A stretch of DNA of 43,577 nucleotides from a virus. Made by a program: the position numbers and the translations under genes. The notes beneath the pieces are model-generated. The model ran no database searches, was not told where the DNA came from, and saw nothing but the letters and a program-made list of their open reading frames with translations. Below are positions 4,456-28,800 of the stretch, piece after piece (position 1 is the stretch's first letter; each line of letters starts with the position of its first letter). The stretch spans positions 1 through 43,577 of IMG/VR virus record IMGVR_UViG_3300045988_012481; one strand, given 5' to 3'.

Positions 4456-5631
4456 TTATTCAATTACTTTCATTCGTTCTGCCTGTGTCGGAAGCTGCGC
4501 TGCACGGCTGAAATTACGGTATTCTTTGCGCAAGCGCTTTATGCGGATAGATGTTTGTTGTTCTTTGTCTACCATTCCTGCGGCATTGTAGGCGATTCTA
4601 CGGCGCTCCAGCTTTCGCACCGTCCGTTCAATCTTGCGTTGCATTTGCGTTGCTTCATACGCTGTATAAGTAACGCCCTCAAACTCAAACGGTGGTTTAT
4701 CAATGTTTTCAAGCTGTTCGTCGGTGTAAACGCGCTCGGAAACGCCCTCAACAAAGGGGTGCTTGTGGTGTCGGCAGTTCGCACCTTCCAAGCCGTCAAC
4801 TTCACCCAGGCCACAAACCGCGTAAATGCTGGGATACTTGCCGCCGGTCTTGGTGCTGTAAACCTTGCCTTGCCACTTCTTGTGATTTGACCAAACGTGC
4901 GGTTTGTTTACGTCGCGTGCTCCCCTATGCGCTGTAATCTCATACAGTTCAGTTTCAAGCGTTTCTGCGGCGTTCTCCGCATACTTTGCCGTAAGCTGAT
5001 TCAAGCCCGTTAGAACGGCTCTACGCGCCGCAACGTCCGCGTGGTCACGGTGTCCGCTTGCGTAGTCAATGGTGTATATGCCGCTGTCTGCGAGGTCTCG
5101 CACAGCGTCCTCAAACGCCTGCTGCAACGTAAACGCTCCAGACTGCACTTTCACTTCTGCTTTGTCTAACGCTGCTTGATATGCCTTTGCGATTGGCTGG
5201 AATGTGATTCTGCCGTTTGTCTGCGCTGCAAAGCCAAGTGAACGAGTAATGTTTCGATATCCGTCAAGCGTCTGTTCCTGTATCTGCGCAATATCTGCGG
5301 CAGACACCCAGAAAAGCGGTTCGGTTACGCTCGCCTTGGTTGCAAGCTCATCGTAATACTTCTGGTTGTACTCAACTACACGCTCAAGCGCGTTTTGTAC
5401 TTGCGGCGTTGTCTCTTTGCTGTGCTTGGAAATGATATTTTCGATAGCGTCCATATCAAGACCATAGGCGCGTAAGACGCGAATGTCATTCATTGCGACT
5501 TCGTTAAACTCTCCGGTCAGTTTGAACCGTTTACAGATTTCGCGCAGAATATCCTTTTCCAACTCGCGCATCGCAATGGCGATTGGTTCAGGAGCAGCGT
5601 CTAAATACTCCGGTGTGATGGGGAATTTCAT
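4456..5631 (-). CDS. Minor head protein, SPP1 gp7 / Mu F family
   Basis: 391 aa. ATGA overlap with the portal stop. Motif ...AHRGARD...HKKWQGKVYSTKTGGKYPSIY...GLEGANCRHHKHPF. Confidence 0.8.
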   Translation of the reverse strand: MKFPITPEYLDAAPEPIAIAMRELEKDILREICKRFKLTGEFNEVAMNDIRVLRAYGLDMDAIENIISKHSKETTPQVQNALERVVEYNQKYYDELATKASVTEPLFWVSAADIAQIQEQTLDGYRNITRSLGFAAQTNGRITFQPIAKAYQAALDKAEVKVQSGAFTLQQAFEDAVRDLADSGIYTIDYASGHRDHADVAARRAVLTGLNQLTAKYAENAAETLETELYEITAHRGARDVNKPHVWSNHKKWQGKVYSTKTGGKYPSIYAVCGLGEVDGLEGANCRHHKHPFVEGVSERVYTDEQLENIDKPPFEFEGVTYTAYEATQMQRKIERTVRKLERRRIAYNAAGMVDKEQQTSIRIKRLRKEYRNFSRAAQLPTQAERMKVIE

Positions 5632-7049
5632 TCAATTTCTTCTTCCTCCTCATCGGTCATATCCTGTGCTTTCGGCAGCATCTGTTTCGCTGTCTCGTCG
5701 TCCTCATTTAACCATTTGGCTCTGAACTCCCAATCGTTCATGATTCCGGCGTTCAGCAGCTGCATATCGCGCGAAAAGTCAGTGTCCTTGTCCTCGATAA
5801 TGCTATCGTCAAAATCAATACTGATTTCAACATCTTCATCAAGTCCGGCGTTCATCGCCTCATTGCCGAGGTGCAGGATAATCCTGCACAGTTCTGTTAA
5901 TGCCTGCTCCAAGATGATTTCATGCTTCTTGATAGTGCGGAACATTGTACTGTTCTCACTAATGACCTGCGTTGCAGTTGCTACGCTTGCGCCGTTGAAG
6001 CGATAGTAATTCTCGCCGAATCCCGTCTTGCTGGAAAGCAAATCAAGCTGATCTTGAATACCTTGATTGTGCTCCGCTGTACGCAAAGACATATCAATAG
6101 GCTGTACCACATTGCCGTCCTGCGTGTCCTCCGGCAGCACATAATACGCCAGTTCATCCGGGTCAAACACCGGTTCGCCGTCAAGATACTGCGTTGCAGC
6201 AGGCTTGACCATAATGCGCTTTTTGCCGAGCAGAAACTCGTTTACATAGCTGTCGTATGCGATATCAACGCCCTTGAGAACGTCGATAGCGTTTGCATAG
6301 ACCGGAATGCCGAGCGGAATGTAATAATCAAAGTTGTTCGCGATGTTCAAACGATCAATCACAAACTGCCGCTTGTTTGAACCGGTATGCACAACAGGTG
6401 GAATTTTTTCAAACCCCGGCACGCTTGCAAGGCTTTCTTCAAACAAACTTTCATTTGTGATTTTGAAAATGCGGTTTTCGATGTCGTAAAATCCGATTTC
6501 ATTTCGCTTGTGGATTTGCAGATAGCAGTAATCCTCGCCTTTCACGGTGGTTCTGCTGTCGAACGCGCATTCCATGATAACGCCGTTCTGCCATGCCAGA
6601 GGGAAAATGTGCTCTACAGTCACATAATCAATCTGAATGCCGTTTGCTGCGCCCACAATAGGCTGTTCGCCGTCCGACACTGCACCGACAACACGCGGAA
6701 TGTATGCGACCGTACCCAGTGCAGACTTCATTTCCTGCATCTCGTTCGCCTTTACCTCGAAGTTGTTCTCTTCAAAGATGCGGTCGATGAACGCCTGTTC
6801 TTTCTCGCCCTCCAAGGTGATTTTCACCTTTTCGTTCATGAGTAGGTTCGCCCAGTCCTCGGCTAACTTCTTGGCCATACCGAGCGTATATCGCTTGCAA
6901 TGCACGGTTCGGCCGCAGTTCCGCACCTTGTAATGGTGGAATGACTTCACATCACCCACATACCAGCTGCGCCACTCCGCAACCTTACCGTAAAACTCGG
7001 GGGCGATTGTGTTATAGCCGAGCTCTTTCAGTTTTTCAATGATCGTCAA
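5628..7049 (-). CDS. Portal protein (SPP1 gp6-like), TTG start
   Basis: 473 aa immediately after TerL (TTGA overlap), with an acidic C-terminus. Size and position are typical of portals. Confidence 0.9.
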   Translation of the reverse strand: MTIIEKLKELGYNTIAPEFYGKVAEWRSWYVGDVKSFHHYKVRNCGRTVHCKRYTLGMAKKLAEDWANLLMNEKVKITLEGEKEQAFIDRIFEENNFEVKANEMQEMKSALGTVAYIPRVVGAVSDGEQPIVGAANGIQIDYVTVEHIFPLAWQNGVIMECAFDSRTTVKGEDYCYLQIHKRNEIGFYDIENRIFKITNESLFEESLASVPGFEKIPPVVHTGSNKRQFVIDRLNIANNFDYYIPLGIPVYANAIDVLKGVDIAYDSYVNEFLLGKKRIMVKPAATQYLDGEPVFDPDELAYYVLPEDTQDGNVVQPIDMSLRTAEHNQGIQDQLDLLSSKTGFGENYYRFNGASVATATQVISENSTMFRTIKKHEIILEQALTELCRIILHLGNEAMNAGLDEDVEISIDFDDSIIEDKDTDFSRDMQLLNAGIMNDWEFRAKWLNEDDETAKQMLPKAQDMTDEEEEEIE

Positions 7050-8287
7050 GCAATCACTCCCATTCTTCTGTAAACGCGCTCAAGGGCGTATCTCGTGGCG
7101 TCAATCAGATGGTTCTTTTCATCTGGATAGCCGCTGATGATCTCGCCGTCCTTGTCGCGCTCATACTCATAGTTCACAAACTCATCATAGGCGTGCGGCG
7201 TTCGCTTGCGGTCGATGACAAGTGTCCTGCGCTGTAGCCACTTCATGCCGTACTCGACACTGCCGGGGCCCTTCACGGCCTCTTTGGCAGGCAGTCGCAT
7301 AGCGCGGTAGTCTGCAACGCTTTTTGGCTCTGCACTGTCGCAGGTGATAAACGTATCATTATAGCCGCGCTCCATGATAATACCGGCGCTTTCCTCGTTA
7401 CTCAGCTTGTTTTTGTATATCTCATCGATAAAATACACCGTCTCACGCGCCCTGTCGTAGTGAACGCGGATAAAAGCGAACGGGTCGGGGAACCATCCCC
7501 AGTCAGCGCCTTGATAGATATGATCGAACGTTGCCACCTCATCGTCTGTGATTTCTCGCAGTTCAAGGTTTTCAAAGACGTTGCCGCCCGTGCCGACCGG
7601 AATGCCGAGGTATTCATGCTGATACGCTCGCTCGTTCGTCAGTTTTAGGTGCTCCGCCTCATAAATAAACTGATCGCCTAACCACTCGCGCGGCGCTTCA
7701 AGGTACGTGCTGCGGTGGCAGAGACGGTCAGGGCGTTCTTCTAAACTGTCCTTGTTCGCCCAGTTGTCGCGGCTGATCGGAGGGTTATAACTCTCAAAGT
7801 TCCAATACTTATCACCGCCGCGCATTGTAGACTGCAAGATCGTTCGGATTTCCGCGCGTCCTGCGAACTGGTCTTTCTCCTCGAAATGCGTAACAGCAAT
7901 ATAACCAAACGGAACCTTGATTGACTTGATTTTCATCGGGTCATCAGCGCCGCGAAACATGATTTTCTGTCCGGTCGGGCGATATATCAGCTCCATCGGC
8001 GATACCTTCGCGTCCCAGTAGTCAGCCATGCCCAGCTCACCAATTGCCCATACATACTGTGCGTATACACTATCGCGGATGGTGTTTGCAACCTTGCGTA
8101 ACACAAGCGCATGCGTTCCGGGGTTGTGGATAAGCAGTAGCGGAACGACAATCGACACAAACGACGATTTCAGCGAGCCCCGGCCGCCGCTCTCATCGTA
8201 ATGTGTGTGACCATGCTCAAACACATCGTGCGCAACGGCGTAAAATGCCGGTCCGATGATCTGCGAGAGCTTCAACTCAGACATCAA
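7046..8287 (-). CDS. terL: Terminase large subunit (PBSX/Terminase_3-like)
   Basis: 413 aa. Walker A-like GGRGSLKS near the N-terminus and a C-terminal nuclease-type region (...ITCDSAEP...HLIDATRYALE). Confidence 0.95.
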   Translation of the reverse strand: MMSELKLSQIIGPAFYAVAHDVFEHGHTHYDESGGRGSLKSSFVSIVVPLLLIHNPGTHALVLRKVANTIRDSVYAQYVWAIGELGMADYWDAKVSPMELIYRPTGQKIMFRGADDPMKIKSIKVPFGYIAVTHFEEKDQFAGRAEIRTILQSTMRGGDKYWNFESYNPPISRDNWANKDSLEERPDRLCHRSTYLEAPREWLGDQFIYEAEHLKLTNERAYQHEYLGIPVGTGGNVFENLELREITDDEVATFDHIYQGADWGWFPDPFAFIRVHYDRARETVYFIDEIYKNKLSNEESAGIIMERGYNDTFITCDSAEPKSVADYRAMRLPAKEAVKGPGSVEYGMKWLQRRTLVIDRKRTPHAYDEFVNYEYERDKDGEIISGYPDEKNHLIDATRYALERVYRRMGVIA

Positions 8288-23125: not shown

Positions 23126-23196
23126 CGGTGTTCACCTCCACTTGTTCTCCCCTTCCTGACCGTGGTATAATAGCCGAGAAAGGAGCATTCAGCACA

Positions 23197-23355
23197 TCAT
23201 CGGGTTTCTCTTCGCTTGGGAAACGCTCGTCTGATTTCAGCGTCTATATACACGTCGTAGACCTTGCAAAGCAGTGTGCAAACGCCGAATCCTAAAGCGA
23301 ACCCAGCAAGCGCCGTGCCAAAATCGCCTGATGAACAAACTCTTTTTACATTCAT
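23197..23355 (-). CDS. Small membrane protein (52 aa, MNVKRVCSSGDFGTALAGFALGFGVCTLLCKVYDVYIDAEIRRAFPKRRETR)
   Basis: AGGGTGA RBS. One hydrophobic helix and a basic tail. Competes with plus-strand track ORFs that lack RBSs. Confidence 0.35.
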   Translation of the reverse strand: MNVKRVCSSGDFGTALAGFALGFGVCTLLCKVYDVYIDAEIRRAFPKRRETR

Positions 23356-23585
23356 TGCTTTCACCCTATTTCAGAAAGGATTGTTTTTATTGTTTCGTCC
23401 AACTAACCCGCAAAACAAAGCGCAAACACAAGCTGAATTACGCGATTGGGAAATGAAACGCGCCCATCGCGCTAAGCTCGAACGGCGAGAAAATTTCCAT
23501 TATTGGATAACTACCATCCTCGCTGTGCTTGCCTTTATCCTGTCTGTCGCATCGTTGTCATGGCAGGTATACAAAGACCTGCACC

Positions 23586-23675
23586 CTACCGCTTGTACCA
23601 CTTGCGCATCAACACAATCAGCACAGCCAGAATAACCATCGTTGCGATGTTAAGCGACATCAGTACTGGATCCAT
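23586..23675 (-). CDS. Mini hydrophobic peptide (29 aa, MDPVLMSLNIATMVILAVLIVLMRKWYKR)
   Basis: GGAGGTGA RBS directly after the cro-like stop. Hydrophobic helix plus basic C-terminus. Confidence 0.4.
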   Translation of the reverse strand: MDPVLMSLNIATMVILAVLIVLMRKWYKR

Positions 23676-23690
23676 TGCTCTCACCTCCGC

Positions 23691-23900
23691 TTATGCGCTC
23701 TTAGGATTGATCGGTTCGGTGCTGAAAAGGTACTTGTATTCGCACTTGTACAGATCGCACAGTTTGTTGACTTCTTCCATCGTGAAACGGCCGCTGCGCT
23801 TCTTGGATTCATAGGTGCACCGGTTCAGGCCGAGATAATCGGCGGTGTACTGGTTAGAGTGGCTATATCTTGCCTGCTCTGCATTCAGGTTTGGAAACAT
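23691..23900 (-). CDS. Cro-like XRE-family HTH regulator (69 aa)
   Basis: NLNAEQARYSHSNQYTADYLGLNRCTYESKKRSGRFTMEE...YLF. Divergent from the repressor across the operator region. Confidence 0.75.
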   Translation of the reverse strand: MFPNLNAEQARYSHSNQYTADYLGLNRCTYESKKRSGRFTMEEVNKLCDLYKCEYKYLFSTEPINPKSA

Positions 23901-23920
23901 TTCATCACCTCCGTTTCAAA

Positions 23921-24010
23921 ATTAGCATTTTGCTGATTACAATATTATAATATCAGCATTTCGCTAATTTGTCAATAGCATTCCGCAAATAAAATTAGCA
24001 TTTTGATAAT
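23921..24010. promoter_or_regulatory. Four 17-bp operator-like imperfect palindromes plus the leftward promoter
   Basis: attagcattttgctgat (23921-37), atcagcatttcgctaat (23952-68), aatagcattccgcaaat (23974-90), attagcattttgataat (23994-24010). Minus-strand TTGACA (23975-70), 17-nt spacer, TATTAT (23952-47). Confidence 0.75.
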
Positions 24011-24017
24011 TTTAATC

Positions 24018-24046
24018 TTGACACAGATAGACGCATACTATATAAT
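24018..24046 (+). promoter_or_regulatory. Consensus sigma-A-type promoter for the repressor operon
   Basis: TTGACA (24018-24023), 17-nt spacer, TATAAT (24041-24046); 25 nt upstream of the repressor ATG. Confidence 0.8.
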
Positions 24047-24071
24047 CAAAATAAAGAAAGGGGTGAACGAT

Positions 24072-24470
24072 ATGACGCTTGGTGAGCGAATCGTTGCCAT
24101 CAGAAAAGAAAAAGGCATTACCCAAAAAGATTTTGCTGAACAATTAGGCATTACTGCTACTCGGTTAAATTACTGGGAAAAAGACAAACGATTCCCGCCT
24201 GTTCCTATGCTCAACCTGATTGCGGAATGTCTCGATGTAGATAGCGATTATCTGATTGGGCGAAAAGAAAGTCCTGAAATAAAAAAAGCCCCCACTCCAG
24301 CAAAAGCCGGAGCAGGGAAAGTGACTGTAGGACAGATCAGGCAGACGCTTATTCAGTTAGGTATTCTCCGCGACGGAGAGGATTTAACAGATGCCGATTT
24401 ACTGTTCTTGCGCATCGCTTTTAAGTCCATTGCTGATTGGTTCGCACAGCGCGGCAAAGGTACGCAATAG
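24072..24470 (+). CDS. cI-like repressor, XRE-family HTH (132 aa, no peptidase domain)
   Basis: AAAGGGGTGA RBS. MTLGERIVAIRKEKGITQKDFAEQLGITATRLNYWEKDKRFP. Confidence 0.85.
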   Translation: MTLGERIVAIRKEKGITQKDFAEQLGITATRLNYWEKDKRFPPVPMLNLIAECLDVDSDYLIGRKESPEIKKAPTPAKAGAGKVTVGQIRQTLIQLGILRDGEDLTDADLLFLRIAFKSIADWFAQRGKGTQ

Positions 24471-24722
24471 ACGCTGCGGATCATCAAAAGTATTGAGATA
24501 GGTGGCGAGCTTTTCGCAGTTGGGATATTTATTATTTTCCATGTTTTGTTCCCTGCCTTTCTTGATACTATGGTATTACCAATATAAGGCAATATCAAGC
24601 AAAACCGTCCGTCAAGTTATGACAATATTATAAATCGAACACTTGTTCGATTCAAGGACGAGTTTTCGGATTACAAGTAAAGTCCAATAAACAGGACTTA
24701 TGCAACACGGGAGAGTGTCAAA

Positions 24723-25808
24723 ATGAGTTACGAGGTTTGCTTTTACAATGGACGTATATCATTCATCTTTCCCAAACCTGCTGGCGCTCTTTATGACAAT
24801 CGAGATATTATCTACGATGCAGAAAGAATATCCGTAGATGGTGAAGCGCATGATTTAACATCTATTTCGTCCATTGAATCTATTCCGGTTCCTACTTTTG
24901 ACACTTCAATATCGGTGCACGATGGTTTAGGTGTCACCGGTTCGTTGGAATATGTTCTAAGGATGCATGCAAGCAGGCTGTGGAAAATTGAAAAGTACGA
25001 CTTAGCACTTGCATGTATAGAGAAAGCAACCGAAATCATGTTTGAATCGCCCATCGGTTGGAGTGAAAACGATTTCTACCGCGTCGTGCAATGGTACGAG
25101 GAAATCGGAAGATTTTCCAAAGCCTTAGAGTGGCAGCATAAAATCGAGGAAAACTCAAATAAAATCTCGGTTGGTGCTGCACTCAGAACCCGCATCTACA
25201 ATGAGGTAAAGATCAACTGTCTGGCCATGGGCACAGATCTTGTTTTGATTCCATGGGAAAACGGAAGAAGTGCAGTGTCTGCCAAATATCAAGGGCGTGT
25301 GTATACCATGCACGGAAATGATTGGCGTTTTCCTAAACTCCCGAAATTCATTCTAAAGACCGGATATGTAGAGCCAGACGGCGCGTTCGTTCGATTCCCT
25401 ATAGTCTTTTTCGACGACAGAAACCAGGATAGGATTTATTATAAAGGCGAAGAACAGCCTATGCTTCACACAAGCTGGAGGCCGTTTGTTGATGATCGAG
25501 ACGAAGACGAGATCGAAGTATACAACGAATTGCAGCGCAGGATTCGTAACGACAAAGAGCGTAGGTTAAATCACAGTATATATTACCGTGTAAGGTATCT
25601 TCTTCCTGACCTATGTCCTAAATCTCTCAGCGGATTTACTCGTATAAAAAATCAGAACTCCGCCAAATATCAAAAGCTGGTAGAGGAACTAAGCGATCTG
25701 GGTTTTGCGATTCCAGATACTACAATAGCGATTGAAGAACCAATAGACCCGGAACCAAACTACCACGGAGGACGGATTATAAAACCGTTTATTCTGCCGT
25801 GGAAGTGA
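24723..25808 (+). CDS. Unknown 361-aa protein (TPR-like helical region plus MuF-like motif), low-G+C island
   Basis: GGGAGAG RBS. Helical repeats (KYDLALACIEKATEIM; FYRVVQWYEEIGRFSKALEWQ). SAKYQGRVYTMHGNDWRFPKLP resembles HKKWQGKVYSTKTGGKYPSIY of this phage's own MuF protein. Confidence 0.7.
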   Translation: MSYEVCFYNGRISFIFPKPAGALYDNRDIIYDAERISVDGEAHDLTSISSIESIPVPTFDTSISVHDGLGVTGSLEYVLRMHASRLWKIEKYDLALACIEKATEIMFESPIGWSENDFYRVVQWYEEIGRFSKALEWQHKIEENSNKISVGAALRTRIYNEVKINCLAMGTDLVLIPWENGRSAVSAKYQGRVYTMHGNDWRFPKLPKFILKTGYVEPDGAFVRFPIVFFDDRNQDRIYYKGEEQPMLHTSWRPFVDDRDEDEIEVYNELQRRIRNDKERRLNHSIYYRVRYLLPDLCPKSLSGFTRIKNQNSAKYQKLVEELSDLGFAIPDTTIAIEEPIDPEPNYHGGRIIKPFILPWK

Positions 25809-25923
25809 TAAGCGAAATAAAAAGGGTGTAACGTTTTGTTACGGCCTTAAAGTGGTACTAAATAACGTTTCGTTATCGAGTTAGTCCTCAAATTTTGAAG
25901 CAAATAAAAGGGAAGGTGAAATT

Positions 25924-26556
25924 ATGTTTTGCACGAATTGTGGCACGGAATTCGAGGGAAATTTTTGCCCGAACTGCGGAACAAAGGCTGGTGAACAACT
26001 ACCTGCACAAACCGTTGCCCCAAAGGAAACGCACGAGTATTACGATAAAGAGGGCGATTTAATCGACCTCTCCACGATCTACGGCGTTTACAAGGACAGA
26101 ACCGGCATGTCTGCATTCTTCCGCAAATGCACCGATTACGATTCTGTCACTATCGGTAAAGCGTTAGACTATATCGAGGATAACGTAAAGCCGAAGGAAT
26201 ACGGCATGCTGGATGCAATCCGCATGAAGCGTCAGATTGAAGCACCGATTGAGAAGATCATAAAAGTGCAAGCAGTGAACGACCCTTCGGTTAAATTGCA
26301 AAAGGCGCAGCTTTCCGAACTGAAAAAAGCGAACAAACTACAGCAAAAAGAAATGAACGCACAAGCGCGTTGTCCGCGTTGCGGCTCCACTTCCCTTTCT
26401 GCACACAAGAAGGGATTCGGCATCGGCAAGGCCGTGGTAGGCGCAGCCGTGACCGCGCCGCTGGGGCTGGGATTGATCGGTGCCGTAGCCGGAAACAAGG
26501 GCGCGAAAAAAGTCCGCGTCACTTGTTTGAAATGCGGAAAACAATTTTGGGCATAA
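25924..26556 (+). CDS. Double zinc-ribbon protein with glycine-zipper hydrophobic segment (210 aa)
   Basis: AAGGGAAGGTGA RBS. N-terminal CTNCG...CPNCG. C-terminal CPRCG...CLKCG interrupted by GFGIGKAVVGAAVTAPLGLGLIGAVAG. Confidence 0.7.
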   Translation: MFCTNCGTEFEGNFCPNCGTKAGEQLPAQTVAPKETHEYYDKEGDLIDLSTIYGVYKDRTGMSAFFRKCTDYDSVTIGKALDYIEDNVKPKEYGMLDAIRMKRQIEAPIEKIIKVQAVNDPSVKLQKAQLSELKKANKLQQKEMNAQARCPRCGSTSLSAHKKGFGIGKAVVGAAVTAPLGLGLIGAVAGNKGAKKVRVTCLKCGKQFWA

Positions 26557-26596
26557 AAAACGCCCACCGGCGGCAACCGGCGGACGTTATACGGGG

Positions 26597-26637
26597 GGGT
26601 AGAAATCTTGTGCAACGGAATTCTACCCTCTTATTAT
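26597..26637 (+). terminator. Terminator-like hairpin after the 210-aa gene
   Basis: GGGTAGAA (26597-26604) / TTCTACCC (26621-26628) followed by TCTTATTAT. Confidence 0.5.
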
Positions 26638-26660
26638 ATCGAAAATAGGAGGAAAATGCA

Positions 26661-27839
26661 ATGCCACGTCGAAAAAAAGACCCTCGCGGCTTTGTCCGTG
26701 AGACCGGAACGTATATGGGAAAGCATTACGACCTGAGAGCAAAAACCGAAAAGGAACTCAACGAGAAAATCAGGGCAAAACGCGCAGAGATCGAATCCGG
26801 AAGTAAACTCATTGAAGCCGGTGTTACCGTAAAGGAATGGGGGAAACGCTGGGTAGAAACCTACAAGTCCGGCGTGAAGGAATCCACGCGCAGGCTGATT
26901 GAGGGACGACTTGTGAACTACGTCTATCCTTACATTGGGGATATCCCCGTAAGCAAAGTGCGGCCGCTGAACTGTCAGGAAGCGCTTAACTCTGCGGAAG
27001 GACGTGCGCCGGACACCGTAAAGAAGGTGCAGCAGGCAATCGAGCAGATGTTCCGCGCAGCCAAGCAGAACGGCTTGTGCGTCAATAATCCTGCGGAAGA
27101 TTTGAAAATGCCCCGTACTGGCAAGCAGACGAGCCACAGGAGCATTACAGACCGCGAACGTGTTATTTTACTGGAAACTGCAAAGACGCATACTGCGGGG
27201 CCGTGGGTGCTTACTCTGCTGTATAGTGGCTTGCGTCCGGCGGAAAGCCTTGTGCTGACATACGCCGATATTACAGGCGGTATGATTACTGTTGACAAGG
27301 CGTACGACCGGGACACCCGCGCCGAGAAATACCCCAAGTCAGACGCAGGCGTTCGCAAAATCCCGATCATCCCCCAGCTTGCCGCAGTCCTGCCGAAAGC
27401 CGGTTCGTTCGGTGAATTGGTTTTTCCGCGTAACGGGCACTTGTACGATGATAAGTCCATGCGTGCCATGTGGCAGGGTTTCCGCGCCGCTATGGATGAT
27501 ACCGAACGTGAGTTGATCGCGGCGGGGAAAATCTCACCCATTGCCGAGCAGCTGCCGCCTATCGTTCCCTACGATCTGCGCCACACGTTCTGCACAGATT
27601 TAGAGCGCGCGGGCGTACCGCTCAACGTCGCAAGCAAACTCATGGGACACGCATCTATCGAGATTACCGCCAAGATTTACACGCATACCGGCGAGGATAT
27701 GATCGAGCGTGCAGGTGAGCAATTAGCCGCCTTGTTCAGTCCCACATTTAGTCCCATTAACGAAGTGCAAAAAACGCCTATGGCTGACATTATGCGAGAG
27801 CTGCAAGAACTTCGTGCAGCAGTGCTCAAAGCCGTATAA
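26661..27839 (+). CDS. int: Tyrosine recombinase (phage integrase)
   Basis: 392 aa, AGGAGG RBS. C-terminal catalytic pattern ...YDLRHTFCTDLERAGVPLNVASKLMGHASIEITAKIYTH. Confidence 0.95.
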   Translation: MPRRKKDPRGFVRETGTYMGKHYDLRAKTEKELNEKIRAKRAEIESGSKLIEAGVTVKEWGKRWVETYKSGVKESTRRLIEGRLVNYVYPYIGDIPVSKVRPLNCQEALNSAEGRAPDTVKKVQQAIEQMFRAAKQNGLCVNNPAEDLKMPRTGKQTSHRSITDRERVILLETAKTHTAGPWVLTLLYSGLRPAESLVLTYADITGGMITVDKAYDRDTRAEKYPKSDAGVRKIPIIPQLAAVLPKAGSFGELVFPRNGHLYDDKSMRAMWQGFRAAMDDTERELIAAGKISPIAEQLPPIVPYDLRHTFCTDLERAGVPLNVASKLMGHASIEITAKIYTHTGEDMIERAGEQLAALFSPTFSPINEVQKTPMADIMRELQELRAAVLKAV

Positions 27840-27850
27840 AATAACAAAAA

Positions 27851-27892
27851 AGCCTTGTTTCAATGGATTTACCAAAGAAACAAGGCTTTTTA
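27851..27892 (+). terminator. Intrinsic terminator after int
   Basis: AGCCTTGTTTC (27851-61) / GAAACAAGGCT (27877-87) followed by a T-run; an A-run lies upstream, so it may act in both directions. Confidence 0.8.
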
Positions 27893-27895
27893 ATA

Positions 27896-27950
27896 TGGAG
27901 CTGCTAACCAGATTTGAACTGGTGACCTCATCCTTACCAAGGACGAGGTG
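27896..27950 (-). other. attP core: 3' ~53 nt of a tRNA-Thr(GGU) gene (partial tRNA, not a functional gene)
   Basis: Minus strand reads CGTCC-TTGGTAA-GGATG (anticodon arm, GGT), AGGTC, ACCAG-TTCAAAT-CTGGT (T arm), TAGCAGC-T-CCA. No matching 5' acceptor strand or D arm lies upstream. Confidence 0.8.
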
Positions 27951-28098: not shown

Positions 28099-28800
28099 TC
28101 AATGCTTCACAACATACCGGTAGTATGCCGCTTCCTTATTTTTCACTGCGTCCTTGTCTTCGAGCCAGAACGCACAAGCAGCGTCAACATAGTAATCAAT
28201 GTTGCGGATGCCGTGTTTCTCGTTGACCTTGCCAAAGTCGGAGTATACAGCGTTCATTGCCACCCAGAATTCTACCGGGTCGTAATTCAAGTTGTGCTGC
28301 TGCATTACCTGCTTGCACTGTTCAAACGTCCAGTGCGGGCCGGTCGTGCCATCAGCGTTCTGCATGTTGTGCAGCCATTCGTCCGCCATGTCCTTAGTCA
28401 TACGCCCGGTGTGCGTGCTGGACGCATAGCCCATAGTGCGCTCAGAACCGTGCGTCTTGTCGCCTACATAAGAAGTATCCCCCATGTAAGCATCATCGTC
28501 ACGAAAGCCAATAGGGCGCATCTCGTCATCGTAATCGGGGTACTCGTCATACTCCGGATATTCCATGCTGCTTTTCGGCGCAAAGCGTCCGTCAGAATAA
28601 CGGCGATAATTCCGCATCTCCGGTTCGCCGCCGTGAATACGCTCATCATAGTAACCGTAAGGCTCAATATGATTGTACCGATACCGCACGCCGTAATGCT
28701 GGCGATCTTCGGGATACGTCTTGCGGATTCTCCATTCCTCCGGCGAAGCATTCTCTCGGCGGGTGTGCTGCATCAACAGCATTCGGGTTCCTCGTTTCAT
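28099..28800 (-). CDS. Cassette protein 7: Tyr/Asp/Glu/Arg/Pro-rich N-half plus conserved helical C-domain (233 aa)
   Basis: AGGGGG RBS. N-half YPEDRQHYGVRYRYNHIEPYGYYDE...EYPEYDEYPDYDDE. C-half MTKDMADEWLHNMQNADGTTGPHWTFEQCKQVM...FWVAMNAVYSDF. Confidence 0.7.
   Translation of the reverse strand: MKRGTRMLLMQHTRRENASPEEWRIRKTYPEDRQHYGVRYRYNHIEPYGYYDERIHGGEPEMRNYRRYSDGRFAPKSSMEYPEYDEYPDYDDEMRPIGFRDDDAYMGDTSYVGDKTHGSERTMGYASSTHTGRMTKDMADEWLHNMQNADGTTGPHWTFEQCKQVMQQHNLNYDPVEFWVAMNAVYSDFGKVNEKHGIRNIDYYVDAACAFWLEDKDAVKNKEAAYYRYVVKH

Follow-up and report, generated by a model that had tools for sequence, protein, structure and literature searches.

Two separately inherited genes, one with a MuF2-derived core, between the repressor and integrase of a temperate phage of gut Clostridia

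What do genes carried between the repressor and the integrase of a temperate phage do, and do two neighbors at such a site work as one system? Both questions are raised by positions 24,471 to 26,660 of IMG/VR virus record IMGVR_UViG_3300045988_012481, which was analyzed over its whole length of 43,577 nucleotides (the window). It is the circularly permuted, ~43.6-kb genome of a temperate siphophage that infects gut Clostridia and integrates into tRNA-Thr(GGU). Two plus-strand open reading frames (ORFs), gene 1 (361 amino acids [aa]; 24723-25808) and gene 2 (210 aa; 25924-26556), lie between the genes of a cI-like repressor and a tyrosine integrase, and the ORF list and Pfam matches bear out that all four are co-oriented. 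A first description made from the letters alone (the original prediction) took the two for a low-G+C island acquired together and for a candidate defense or exclusion pair. Here, we report that genes 1 and 2 are two independent, separately inherited accessory genes ("morons"), and we weigh what each may do; the interest of the locus rests mostly on gene 1.

Eight sister prophages (L045-L052) were retrieved via the exact gene 2 protein, and the blocks that they share with the window were mapped by blastn. A block running from gene 2 through the integrase to attP (25902-27943, plus strand) was 98-99% identical in all eight. The gene 1 block, made up of the upstream spacer, gene 1, and a further 34 bp (24477-25842, plus strand), was found at ~98-99% identity in six of them (L045-L047 and L050-L052); it was entirely absent from L049, and L048 had just the spacer (70% identity). 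In L048 and L049, which have identical copies of gene 2 and of the integrase gene but not gene 1, the gene 1 slot is held by AntA/ANT/Bro-N antirepressor-like genes on the opposite strand. The gene 1 block begins seven bases past the repressor stop codon and was seen beside three or more unrelated repressor alleles. At its other end, the gap to the gene 2 block in the window is only 59 bp (25843-25901); in L047 (4510-4979), L050, L052, and L073, genes 1 and 2 stand ~470 bp apart, and a 57-aa ORF without a Pfam match lies in between.

Genes 1 and 2 were adjacent in all 10 places where the exact gene 1 protein occurs, an adjacency explained within the lineage by gene 2, integrase, and attP forming one constant block. 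Outside the lineage, tblastn (E ≤ 1e-3) found no gene 2 homolog at 14 distinct loci with a full-length gene 1 homolog. A conserved or obligate pair is contradicted both by this lack of linkage, an outcome that the original prediction had itself named as refuting, and by the two sister prophages without gene 1, and the joint acquisition first proposed is contradicted by the separate recombination blocks and their differing G+C. The low-G+C island stands in part: against a genome value of 0.505, the repressor gene (0.454), the spacer (24471-24722; 0.381), and gene 1 (0.431) are low, as is the immunity region, but gene 2 is at the genome average (0.499; third-position G+C [GC3], 0.56), and the integrase gene is at 0.538.

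Gene 1 comprises an N-terminal beta/tetratricopeptide repeat (TPR)-like domain and a MuF2-derived core. Its AlphaFold2 model (19 sequences; predicted local distance difference test [pLDDT] 87.4, predicted template modeling score [pTM] 0.76) has a beta unit and TPR-like helices over aa 1-170, an alpha/beta core over 173-250, and long helices thereafter. On that model, the N-terminal domain (aa 1-150; 24723-25172, plus strand) is a small beta unit followed by TPR-like helices, and hhalign, BLASTP, and PHROG matches place the MuF2-like core with its following helices at aa 159-332 (25197-25718, plus strand). Foldseek against PDB gave weak TPR matches for the helical part (E 0.2-1, probability up to 0.97, ~70-110 residues) and nothing for the MuF-like half; Pfam TPR models had no match in gene 1 itself, and TPR_1 matched one gene 1 relative (E 2.7e-4). 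Against BFVD, Foldseek returned proteins auto-named "minor capsid protein."

The MuF assignment was drawn from several comparisons. Using hhalign, the gene 1 family alignment (A1) was compared with 17 genuine MuF2 proteins, whose genes lie directly after SPP1-type portal genes, and matched them over residues 159-332 with a probability of 99.7% (E 5.8e-26). In Terrisporobacter phage TVCOM_ph1, the minor head protein encoded beside the portal gene aligned with aa 172-319 of gene 1 by BLASTP (E 6e-16, 34% identity), and PHROG 4611, "minor head protein," matched gene 1 at E 5e-8. Gene 1 scores below the cut-off of PF06152 (18.2 versus 26.3 bits; E 1.3e-3), being matched at model positions 207-270 of 366 and unmatched at positions 1-206; its relatives P0133 (50.2 bits) and P0091 (37.6 bits) score above that cut-off. 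In the gene 1 subfamily the zinc ligands are lost, with SAVS in place of CxxC and KTGY where relatives have FxC, and many more distant relatives retain the CxxC and H/C-x-C ligands.

The original prediction was right to recognize in gene 1 a degenerate MuF-like core that lacks Cys/His ligands, and the alignments show the resemblance to be real homology; the peptide motifs that it quoted are present. The particular parallel that was drawn, with the MuF protein of this same phage, is not significant (BLASTP, E 0.37), and the hidden Markov model of the gene 1 family, which scores other MuF2 proteins at 72-89 bits, did not detect the resident one at E ≤ 10. These alignments make the gene 1 core a true MuF2 homolog, whose source is a different MuF lineage from that of the resident phage. 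Polymorphism among the sister prophages shows purifying selection on gene 1 (ratio of nonsynonymous to synonymous polymorphism [pN/pS], 0.19). It has no HExxH motif (by direct reading) and no DNA-binding domain. Three candidate identities were rejected: a decoy of the resident phage's own MuF, because the similarity is not significant; an ImmA-like protease, because the HExxH motif is missing; and an RRNPP/arbitrium-type peptide receptor, because the helical region spans only ~100 residues and its TPR matches are generic and weak. As a side observation, the MuF2 protein of TVCOM_ph1 (L007, 2870-4384) ends in a C-terminal BURPS668_1122-type deaminase toxin domain (E 1e-21) and so belongs among the polymorphic MuF toxins described by Jamet et al.

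Gene 1 belongs to a large, unnamed family that is typical of the lysogeny modules of Clostridia prophages. A word-index search returned 18 relatives, and an exhaustive profile search returned 1,314 cluster representatives at E ≤ 1e-3, of which 287 reached E ≤ 1e-30; both domains were present in 137 of the best 150 representatives. Among GTDB species representatives, the full-length form was found in Oscillospiraceae, Lachnospiraceae/Blautia, Ruminococcus, and Gemmiger. Neighborhoods were sampled for the proteins from the word-index search. Full-length homologs stand in the lysogeny arm, co-oriented with, and no more than ~2.3 kb upstream of, a tyrosine or serine integrase gene in L001, L002/3, L013, L014, L019, L020, L024, L053, L055, L057, and L062, usually opposite a cro-like gene; the exceptions are L005 and L059-61, in which the homolog is a lone plus-strand gene amid minus-strand early genes.

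The family has also been recombined with other domains. The Blautia phage Montmirail protein WAK79202 (L006, 3438-5002) is encoded directly before that phage's integrase gene; its likeness to gene 1 is confined to the N-terminal domain (E 3e-22), and its C-terminal half is unrelated, which makes that domain a separately mobile module. The upstream neighbor of WAK79202 is a bPH_3 plus SHOCT protein. Seventeen of the best 150 representatives bear N-terminal hydrophobic hairpins, with both ends predicted, by charge, to be cytoplasmic. Other fusions among the same 150 are to TM2 (2), a zinc ribbon (5), and the DNA-binding domain FtsK_gamma (3), and none of the 150 has an enzymatic domain. The relative P0061 combines a TM2 domain with a zinc ribbon (MNCKNCG...CPNCG) like the N terminus of gene 2.

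The downstream neighbor of gene 1 homologs outside the lineage varies, and two recurrent neighbors were observed. In a Cys-containing branch of the family, a conserved ~145-aa protein is encoded 4-28 bp after the homolog (L002, 7033-7467; L053, 1788-2231; L062, 3931-4374); the L002 and L053 copies are 57% identical, have no Pfam match, and may be a real operon partner in that branch. Separately, related genes for XRE-like proteins (133-186 aa) run up to or into the start of a tyrosine or serine integrase gene in several prophages (L001, 7230-7790; L002, 7875-8276; L013, 7328-7864; L053, 3074-3541; L055, 5257-5670), the slot held by gene 2 in the window. The L013 copy ends ~60 bp upstream, and the L001 copy has two C-terminal hydrophobic helices.

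Gene 2 reads as a zinc ribbon, a helical middle, a coiled coil, and a LITAF-like anchor. PHROG 2546, a family of phage proteins of unknown function, matches it over its full length (E 1.3e-38; residues 1-210 against model positions 1-180 of 180), and the N-terminal zinc ribbon has a below-threshold match to Pfam DZR. Its CxxC motifs start at residues 3, 15, 150, and 201. As originally described, the C-terminal ribbon is split by a hydrophobic stretch: C150/C153 and C201/C204 flank Gly/Ala-rich residues 164-190 (best 19-residue Kyte-Doolittle mean, 1.99). This CxxC-hydrophobic-CxxC module (aa 146-207; 26359-26544, plus strand) is predicted from Pfam and hydropathy to be a monotopic membrane anchor. 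The zf-LITAF-like family PF10601 matches gene 2 at E 4.9e-4 (20.6 bits against a cut-off of 23.8) and 4 of 12 gene 2 relatives at E < 0.01 (best, 3.4e-4). The stretch is 27 residues long in gene 2 and five residues shorter in most relatives; because of that shorter length, and because the two knuckles must meet if they are to hold one metal, a re-entrant or monotopic anchor is suggested. The AlphaFold2 model of gene 2 (pLDDT 68) is confidently helical at residues 40-118, continues as a coiled coil, and is unreliable at 161-194 (pLDDT < 40), and no PDB structure was matched by Foldseek below E 2. Neither protein showed a detectable toxin or pore domain.

Gene 2 has relatives of its own in other phages. 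Clostridium difficile phages phiC2, phiMMP01, and phiMMP03 have a full-length relative in the tail module, and Streptococcus phage Javan202 has one between its repressor and integrase genes. The C-terminal module alone stands beside integrase genes in streptococcal and lactococcal phages (TPW22, PLg-TB25, O1205, and many pneumococcal, pyogenes, and agalactiae prophages), and the module is conserved across many phages of Firmicutes, Leuconostoc phages included. The pN/pS of gene 2 is uninformative, as the sister loci were picked by exact identity of this protein.

Both genes are placed for expression in the lysogen, in agreement with the original prediction. A rightward lysogenic promoter candidate of the sigma-70 type upstream of the repressor gene (TTGACA-17-TATAAT; 24018-24046, plus strand) matched the consensus perfectly (12 of 12 positions) in a scan; between it and 27399, no plus-strand terminator-like site was found, and no significant hairpin precedes that at 27847-27891. 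A terminator candidate after gene 2 (26559-26588) was rejected as no better than shuffled sequence (z -0.08). Given this promoter and the lack of a convincing terminator, the lysogen is likely to transcribe the repressor gene, gene 1, gene 2, and int together.

Gene 1 had also been credited with a possible operator, the inverted repeat AATCGAACA-CT-TGTTCGATT, which is present upstream of it at 24633-24652. Its core is a LexA (Cheo) box, CGAACACTTGTTCG (24636-24649), a perfect CGAAC-N4-GTTCG and the only one in the 43.6-kb window; CGAAC-N4-GTTCG is the consensus of the Bacillus-type LexA box (PMC4551915). The box was retained by each of the eight sister prophages, even by L048 and L049, which lack gene 1, and was absent from every other gene 1 homolog locus examined, which argues against an operator of gene 1. 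The inverted repeat fills the 17-nucleotide spacer of a leftward promoter candidate (TTGAAT-17-TATAAT; 24655 to 24627, minus strand; 10 of 12 positions in the consensus scan), whose elements in L048, read from the alignment, are TTGAAA-17-TATACT. A 47-aa ORF on the minus strand (24399-24542) is convergent with the repressor gene, overlaps its 3' end, and is a candidate SOS-controlled antirepressor. It was called as a gene on 220 public contigs and stays open, with conservative substitutions, in L045-type prophages across divergent repressor alleles, with a 59-aa variant in L048 and L049; it has no Pfam match and no detectable homology to known antirepressors. On our best reading, the inverted repeat would be a LexA box controlling a leftward promoter for this ORF, and the two together are probably an SOS-inducible antirepressor and/or antisense switch, antisense interference being made possible by the convergent overlap.

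The immunity region (23186-24476) is itself a swap zone, with at least five repressor alleles across L045-L052, prophages that are otherwise ~95-99% identical. The alleles have unrelated helix-turn-helix (HTH) domains and a similar C-terminal segment (…PAPAKA…GEDL..DL.FL…WF). A repeat search found three operator-like repeats of the AAAATTAGCATTTTGCTGATTA type in the cro-repressor intergenic region (23918-24019; copies at 23918, 23949, and 23991), unrelated in sequence to the inverted repeat upstream of gene 1.

What, then, would the two genes do? The explanation that we favor, tentatively and at somewhat under an even chance, is that both interfere with other phages when expressed from the prophage. 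Temperate phages of Gram-positive hosts classically encode exclusion functions at this site; both genes are dispensable cargo that is swapped without regard to immunity type; the core of gene 1 derives from a virion protein of a foreign MuF lineage, and gene 1 has no catalytic domain; and members of its family are repeatedly tethered to the membrane or to a DNA-binding domain. Under this explanation, the genes would be transcribed in the lysogen, probably from the repressor promoter, and both proteins would probably work against other phages from the cytoplasmic side of the membrane, in the manner of superinfection exclusion. Gene 1 might be an unpackaged MuF mimic that binds the MuF partners (portal or phage DNA ends) of heterologous phages, and such binding would disturb DNA entry or head assembly. 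Gene 2 might be a membrane-anchored exclusion factor, possibly tethering soluble partners such as gene 1; an anchor supplied to gene 1 in trans would be compatible, by analogy, with the zinc-ribbon and membrane-anchored relatives of gene 1. A bolder version holds that temperate phages of gut Clostridia copied the MuF core out of the virion module and re-use it as a prophage-expressed decoy, in some cases tethered to the membrane or to DNA-binding domains, that poisons the portal/DNA-end complexes of rivals with a matching MuF and spares the resident phage, which has a MuF of another lineage. That version is doubtful rather than far-fetched; if true, it would be a new class of defense by virion-protein mimicry and give a first handle on the ligand of the MuF core.

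Several points weigh against interference with other phages. As the original prediction had supposed, neither protein belongs to a known defense family: no family in PADLOC-DB 2.0 or NCBIfam and no Sie-type PHROG matched either one, with the PADLOC check giving no hits for gene 1 and weak zinc-ribbon noise for gene 2 (best, DrmB; E 1.4e-3, 16 bits). Literature on MuF with exclusion or defense, on LITAF with phage, and on Phage_min_cap2 described neither family in such a role. The word "mimic" is used by analogy, the biochemical role of the MuF core itself being unestablished (PMC5576092). About 90% of the top 150 gene 1 family members are without a membrane anchor. The consensus scan found no plus-strand promoter specific to gene 1, and expression in the lysogen is read solely from gene orientation and absent terminators. 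Finally, the gene 2 module is not strictly a lysogeny function, since it occurs in the tail module of phiC2 and in Leuconostoc phages that we take to be virulent.

Among the alternatives, one or both genes could be lysogenic-conversion factors for host physiology (envelope, competence, or stress), with no anti-phage role. Prophage-end morons are functionally diverse, no defense family matches either protein, and the gene 2 module is widespread in Firmicute phages of differing lifestyles, all of which suits such a role; a domain copied from a virion protein, however, points to a phage-directed target, and among the sampled loci the gene 1 family is found solely in prophage contexts. We consider host conversion unlikely, though it is the best placed of the alternatives.

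Gene 1 might instead serve the prophage's own lysis-lysogeny control, as an induction sensor or repressor modulator positioned like ImmA beside ImmR. The family's almost constant place in lysogeny arms beside XRE-type genes, the antirepressor-like genes that hold the same slot in L048 and L049, and the adjoining LexA-box switch could each be read that way. A specific partner would be expected to co-vary with the repressor, but the same cassette is combined with at least three unrelated HTH alleles; gene 1 is dispensable in the sister prophages and has neither a protease motif nor a DNA-binding domain, and the ANT genes of L048 and L049 lie on the opposite strand. A part in the prophage's own switch accordingly seems to us decidedly unlikely.

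That the two genes form a single two-component abortive-infection or exclusion system, in which gene 1 senses head proteins and gene 2 is a membrane-damaging effector, was the original proposal, and it now looks improbable. It draws on the constant adjacency of the exact gene 1 protein to gene 2, on the lack of a strong terminator between them, and on gene 1 relatives with fused N-terminal membrane anchors or, in P0061, a gene 2-like N terminus. Against these stand the identical gene 2 without gene 1 in two sister prophages, the 14 outside loci without a gene 2 homolog, the separate blocks of differing G+C, the ~470-bp spacer in four relatives, the full-length gene 2 relatives found alone in the phiC2 tail module and Javan202, and the want of any detected toxin or pore domain. 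A second virion or morphogenesis MuF paralog of the phage's own is scarcely credible for gene 1: the MuF2-core homology is true and public virome annotations call relatives "minor capsid protein," but the gene is oriented opposite to all lytic genes, lies in the lysogeny arm, lacks the part corresponding to PF06152 positions 1-206, and is absent from sister phages, and a complete MuF2 already follows the portal gene directly.

In the remainder of the window, lytic genes occupy the minus strand, among them those of TerL (7046-8287), an SPP1-type portal (5628-7049), and, directly after the portal gene, the resident complete MuF2 minor head protein (4456-5631; PF06152, E 2.9e-81). The plus-strand lysogeny arm contains the 132-aa repressor (24072-24470), which has an XRE-type HTH (Pfam HTH_19, E 6e-15; HTH_3, E 1e-12) and, by Pfam, no S24 peptidase (self-cleavage) domain. 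It continues through genes 1 and 2 to the tyrosine integrase (26661-27839; Pfam Phage_int_SAM_3, Phage_int_M, and Phage_integrase) and ends at a strong bidirectional terminator hairpin (27847-27891; -23.2 kcal/mol, z -7.2, 0 of 200 shuffles as stable). The attP core, the 3' 48 nucleotides of tRNA-Thr(GGU), was placed at 27896-27943 (minus strand) because homology with integrated copies ends at 27943 and an intact tRNA-Thr(GGT) stands at the junction, as seen in L045, L047, and L049.

Integrated copies occupy a Thr-Trp-Asn tRNA cluster beside dihydroorotase, peptidase M18, and CoaE genes. The first gene across attP encodes a DUF7841 protein (28099-28800, minus strand; E 3e-30), a family also found at the equivalent site in L005 and the sister prophages. 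L045 and L046 lie on a single 110-kb metagenome scaffold, which has two lysogeny arms separated by a phage length (43,258 bp). Host genes follow one arm and phage genes the other; a tandem prophage or an assembled concatemer could account for this. No match to 23900-27900 was found by blastn (distant setting) among 50,697 phage records. The exact gene 1 protein is on 70 public contigs and the exact gene 2 protein on 979, many of them from human-gut metagenomes, under the IMG/NCBI product names "TPR repeat protein" for gene 1 and "RPC12/RpoP" or "zinc-ribbon containing domain protein" for gene 2.

MuF proteins occur in about a third of tailed phages, and the role of their conserved core is unknown (PMC5576092). 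In the gene 1 family, that core has passed to the lysogeny arm, in prophages whose hosts are Clostridia abundant in the human gut. This suggests a second, prophage-expressed use of it, most simply against rival phages, and makes gene 1, as a tractable soluble protein, a means of searching for the MuF ligand. Any phenotype of gene 2 would apply to a very common gut prophage, given the exact protein on about a thousand contigs. For annotation, the locus is a warning against reading a two-gene system from neighbors in a single phage lineage; here, it was mosaic comparison with sister prophages that separated genes 1 and 2 and reassigned the "operator" to a probable SOS switch.

Set beside known systems, the putative SOS switch resembles two. 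The Gifsy antirepressors GfoA and GfhA are small, LexA-controlled proteins of prophages with non-cleavable repressors (PMC3121763), and GIL01 has LexA boxes in phage promoters (PMC4551915). The window likewise has a LexA box in the spacer of a promoter candidate for a very small ORF and a repressor without a self-cleavage domain; unlike the Gifsy case, the small ORF and the repressor gene converge and overlap at the 3' end of the latter. The gene 2 anchor shares with LITAF/SIMPLE-like proteins (PF10601) CxxC knuckles that flank a hydrophobic stretch too short for two membrane crossings, and differs in a stretch that is rich in Gly/Ala and contains Lys and in a score below the Pfam threshold.

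By map position, both genes invite comparison with exclusion proteins. Sie2009 of phage Tuc2009 has the same place between repressor and integrase genes. Ltp of TP-J34 is prophage-expressed and likewise encoded between repressor and integrase (PMC3952083). Genes 1 and 2 share that position and orientation, which recurs for relatives of both, and gene 2 is predicted to be membrane associated. Ltp, in contrast, is an extracellular lipoprotein, and genes 1 and 2 look cytoplasmic or monotopic; general library scans, made without pairwise comparison, gave no PHROG, Pfam, or NCBIfam match of either to an exclusion family.

The closest relationship is that of gene 1 to the MuF superfamily. SPP1 gp7 reportedly binds DNA and aids efficient infection. 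The superfamily consists of minor head proteins such as SPP1 gp7 and Mu gpF (PF04233 and, for MuF2, PF06152); 85-87% of muf genes lie near a portal or terminase gene, and gp7, the one MuF protein studied, binds the portal (Jamet et al. 2017, PMC5576092). Gene 1 differs in not being portal adjacent, lying in the lysogeny arm on the opposite strand; in its beta/TPR-like domain, which takes the place of the N-terminal two-thirds of the MuF2 model; in the loss of zinc ligands in its subfamily and a score below the Pfam cut-off; and in ending without a C-terminal toxin domain, unlike polymorphic MuF toxins such as the TVCOM_ph1 deaminase fusion. What it has in common with the superfamily, over residues 159-332, is the MuF2 core and the helices that follow, including the KYQGRVY, FPKLP, and S-x-RPF-x-D motifs.

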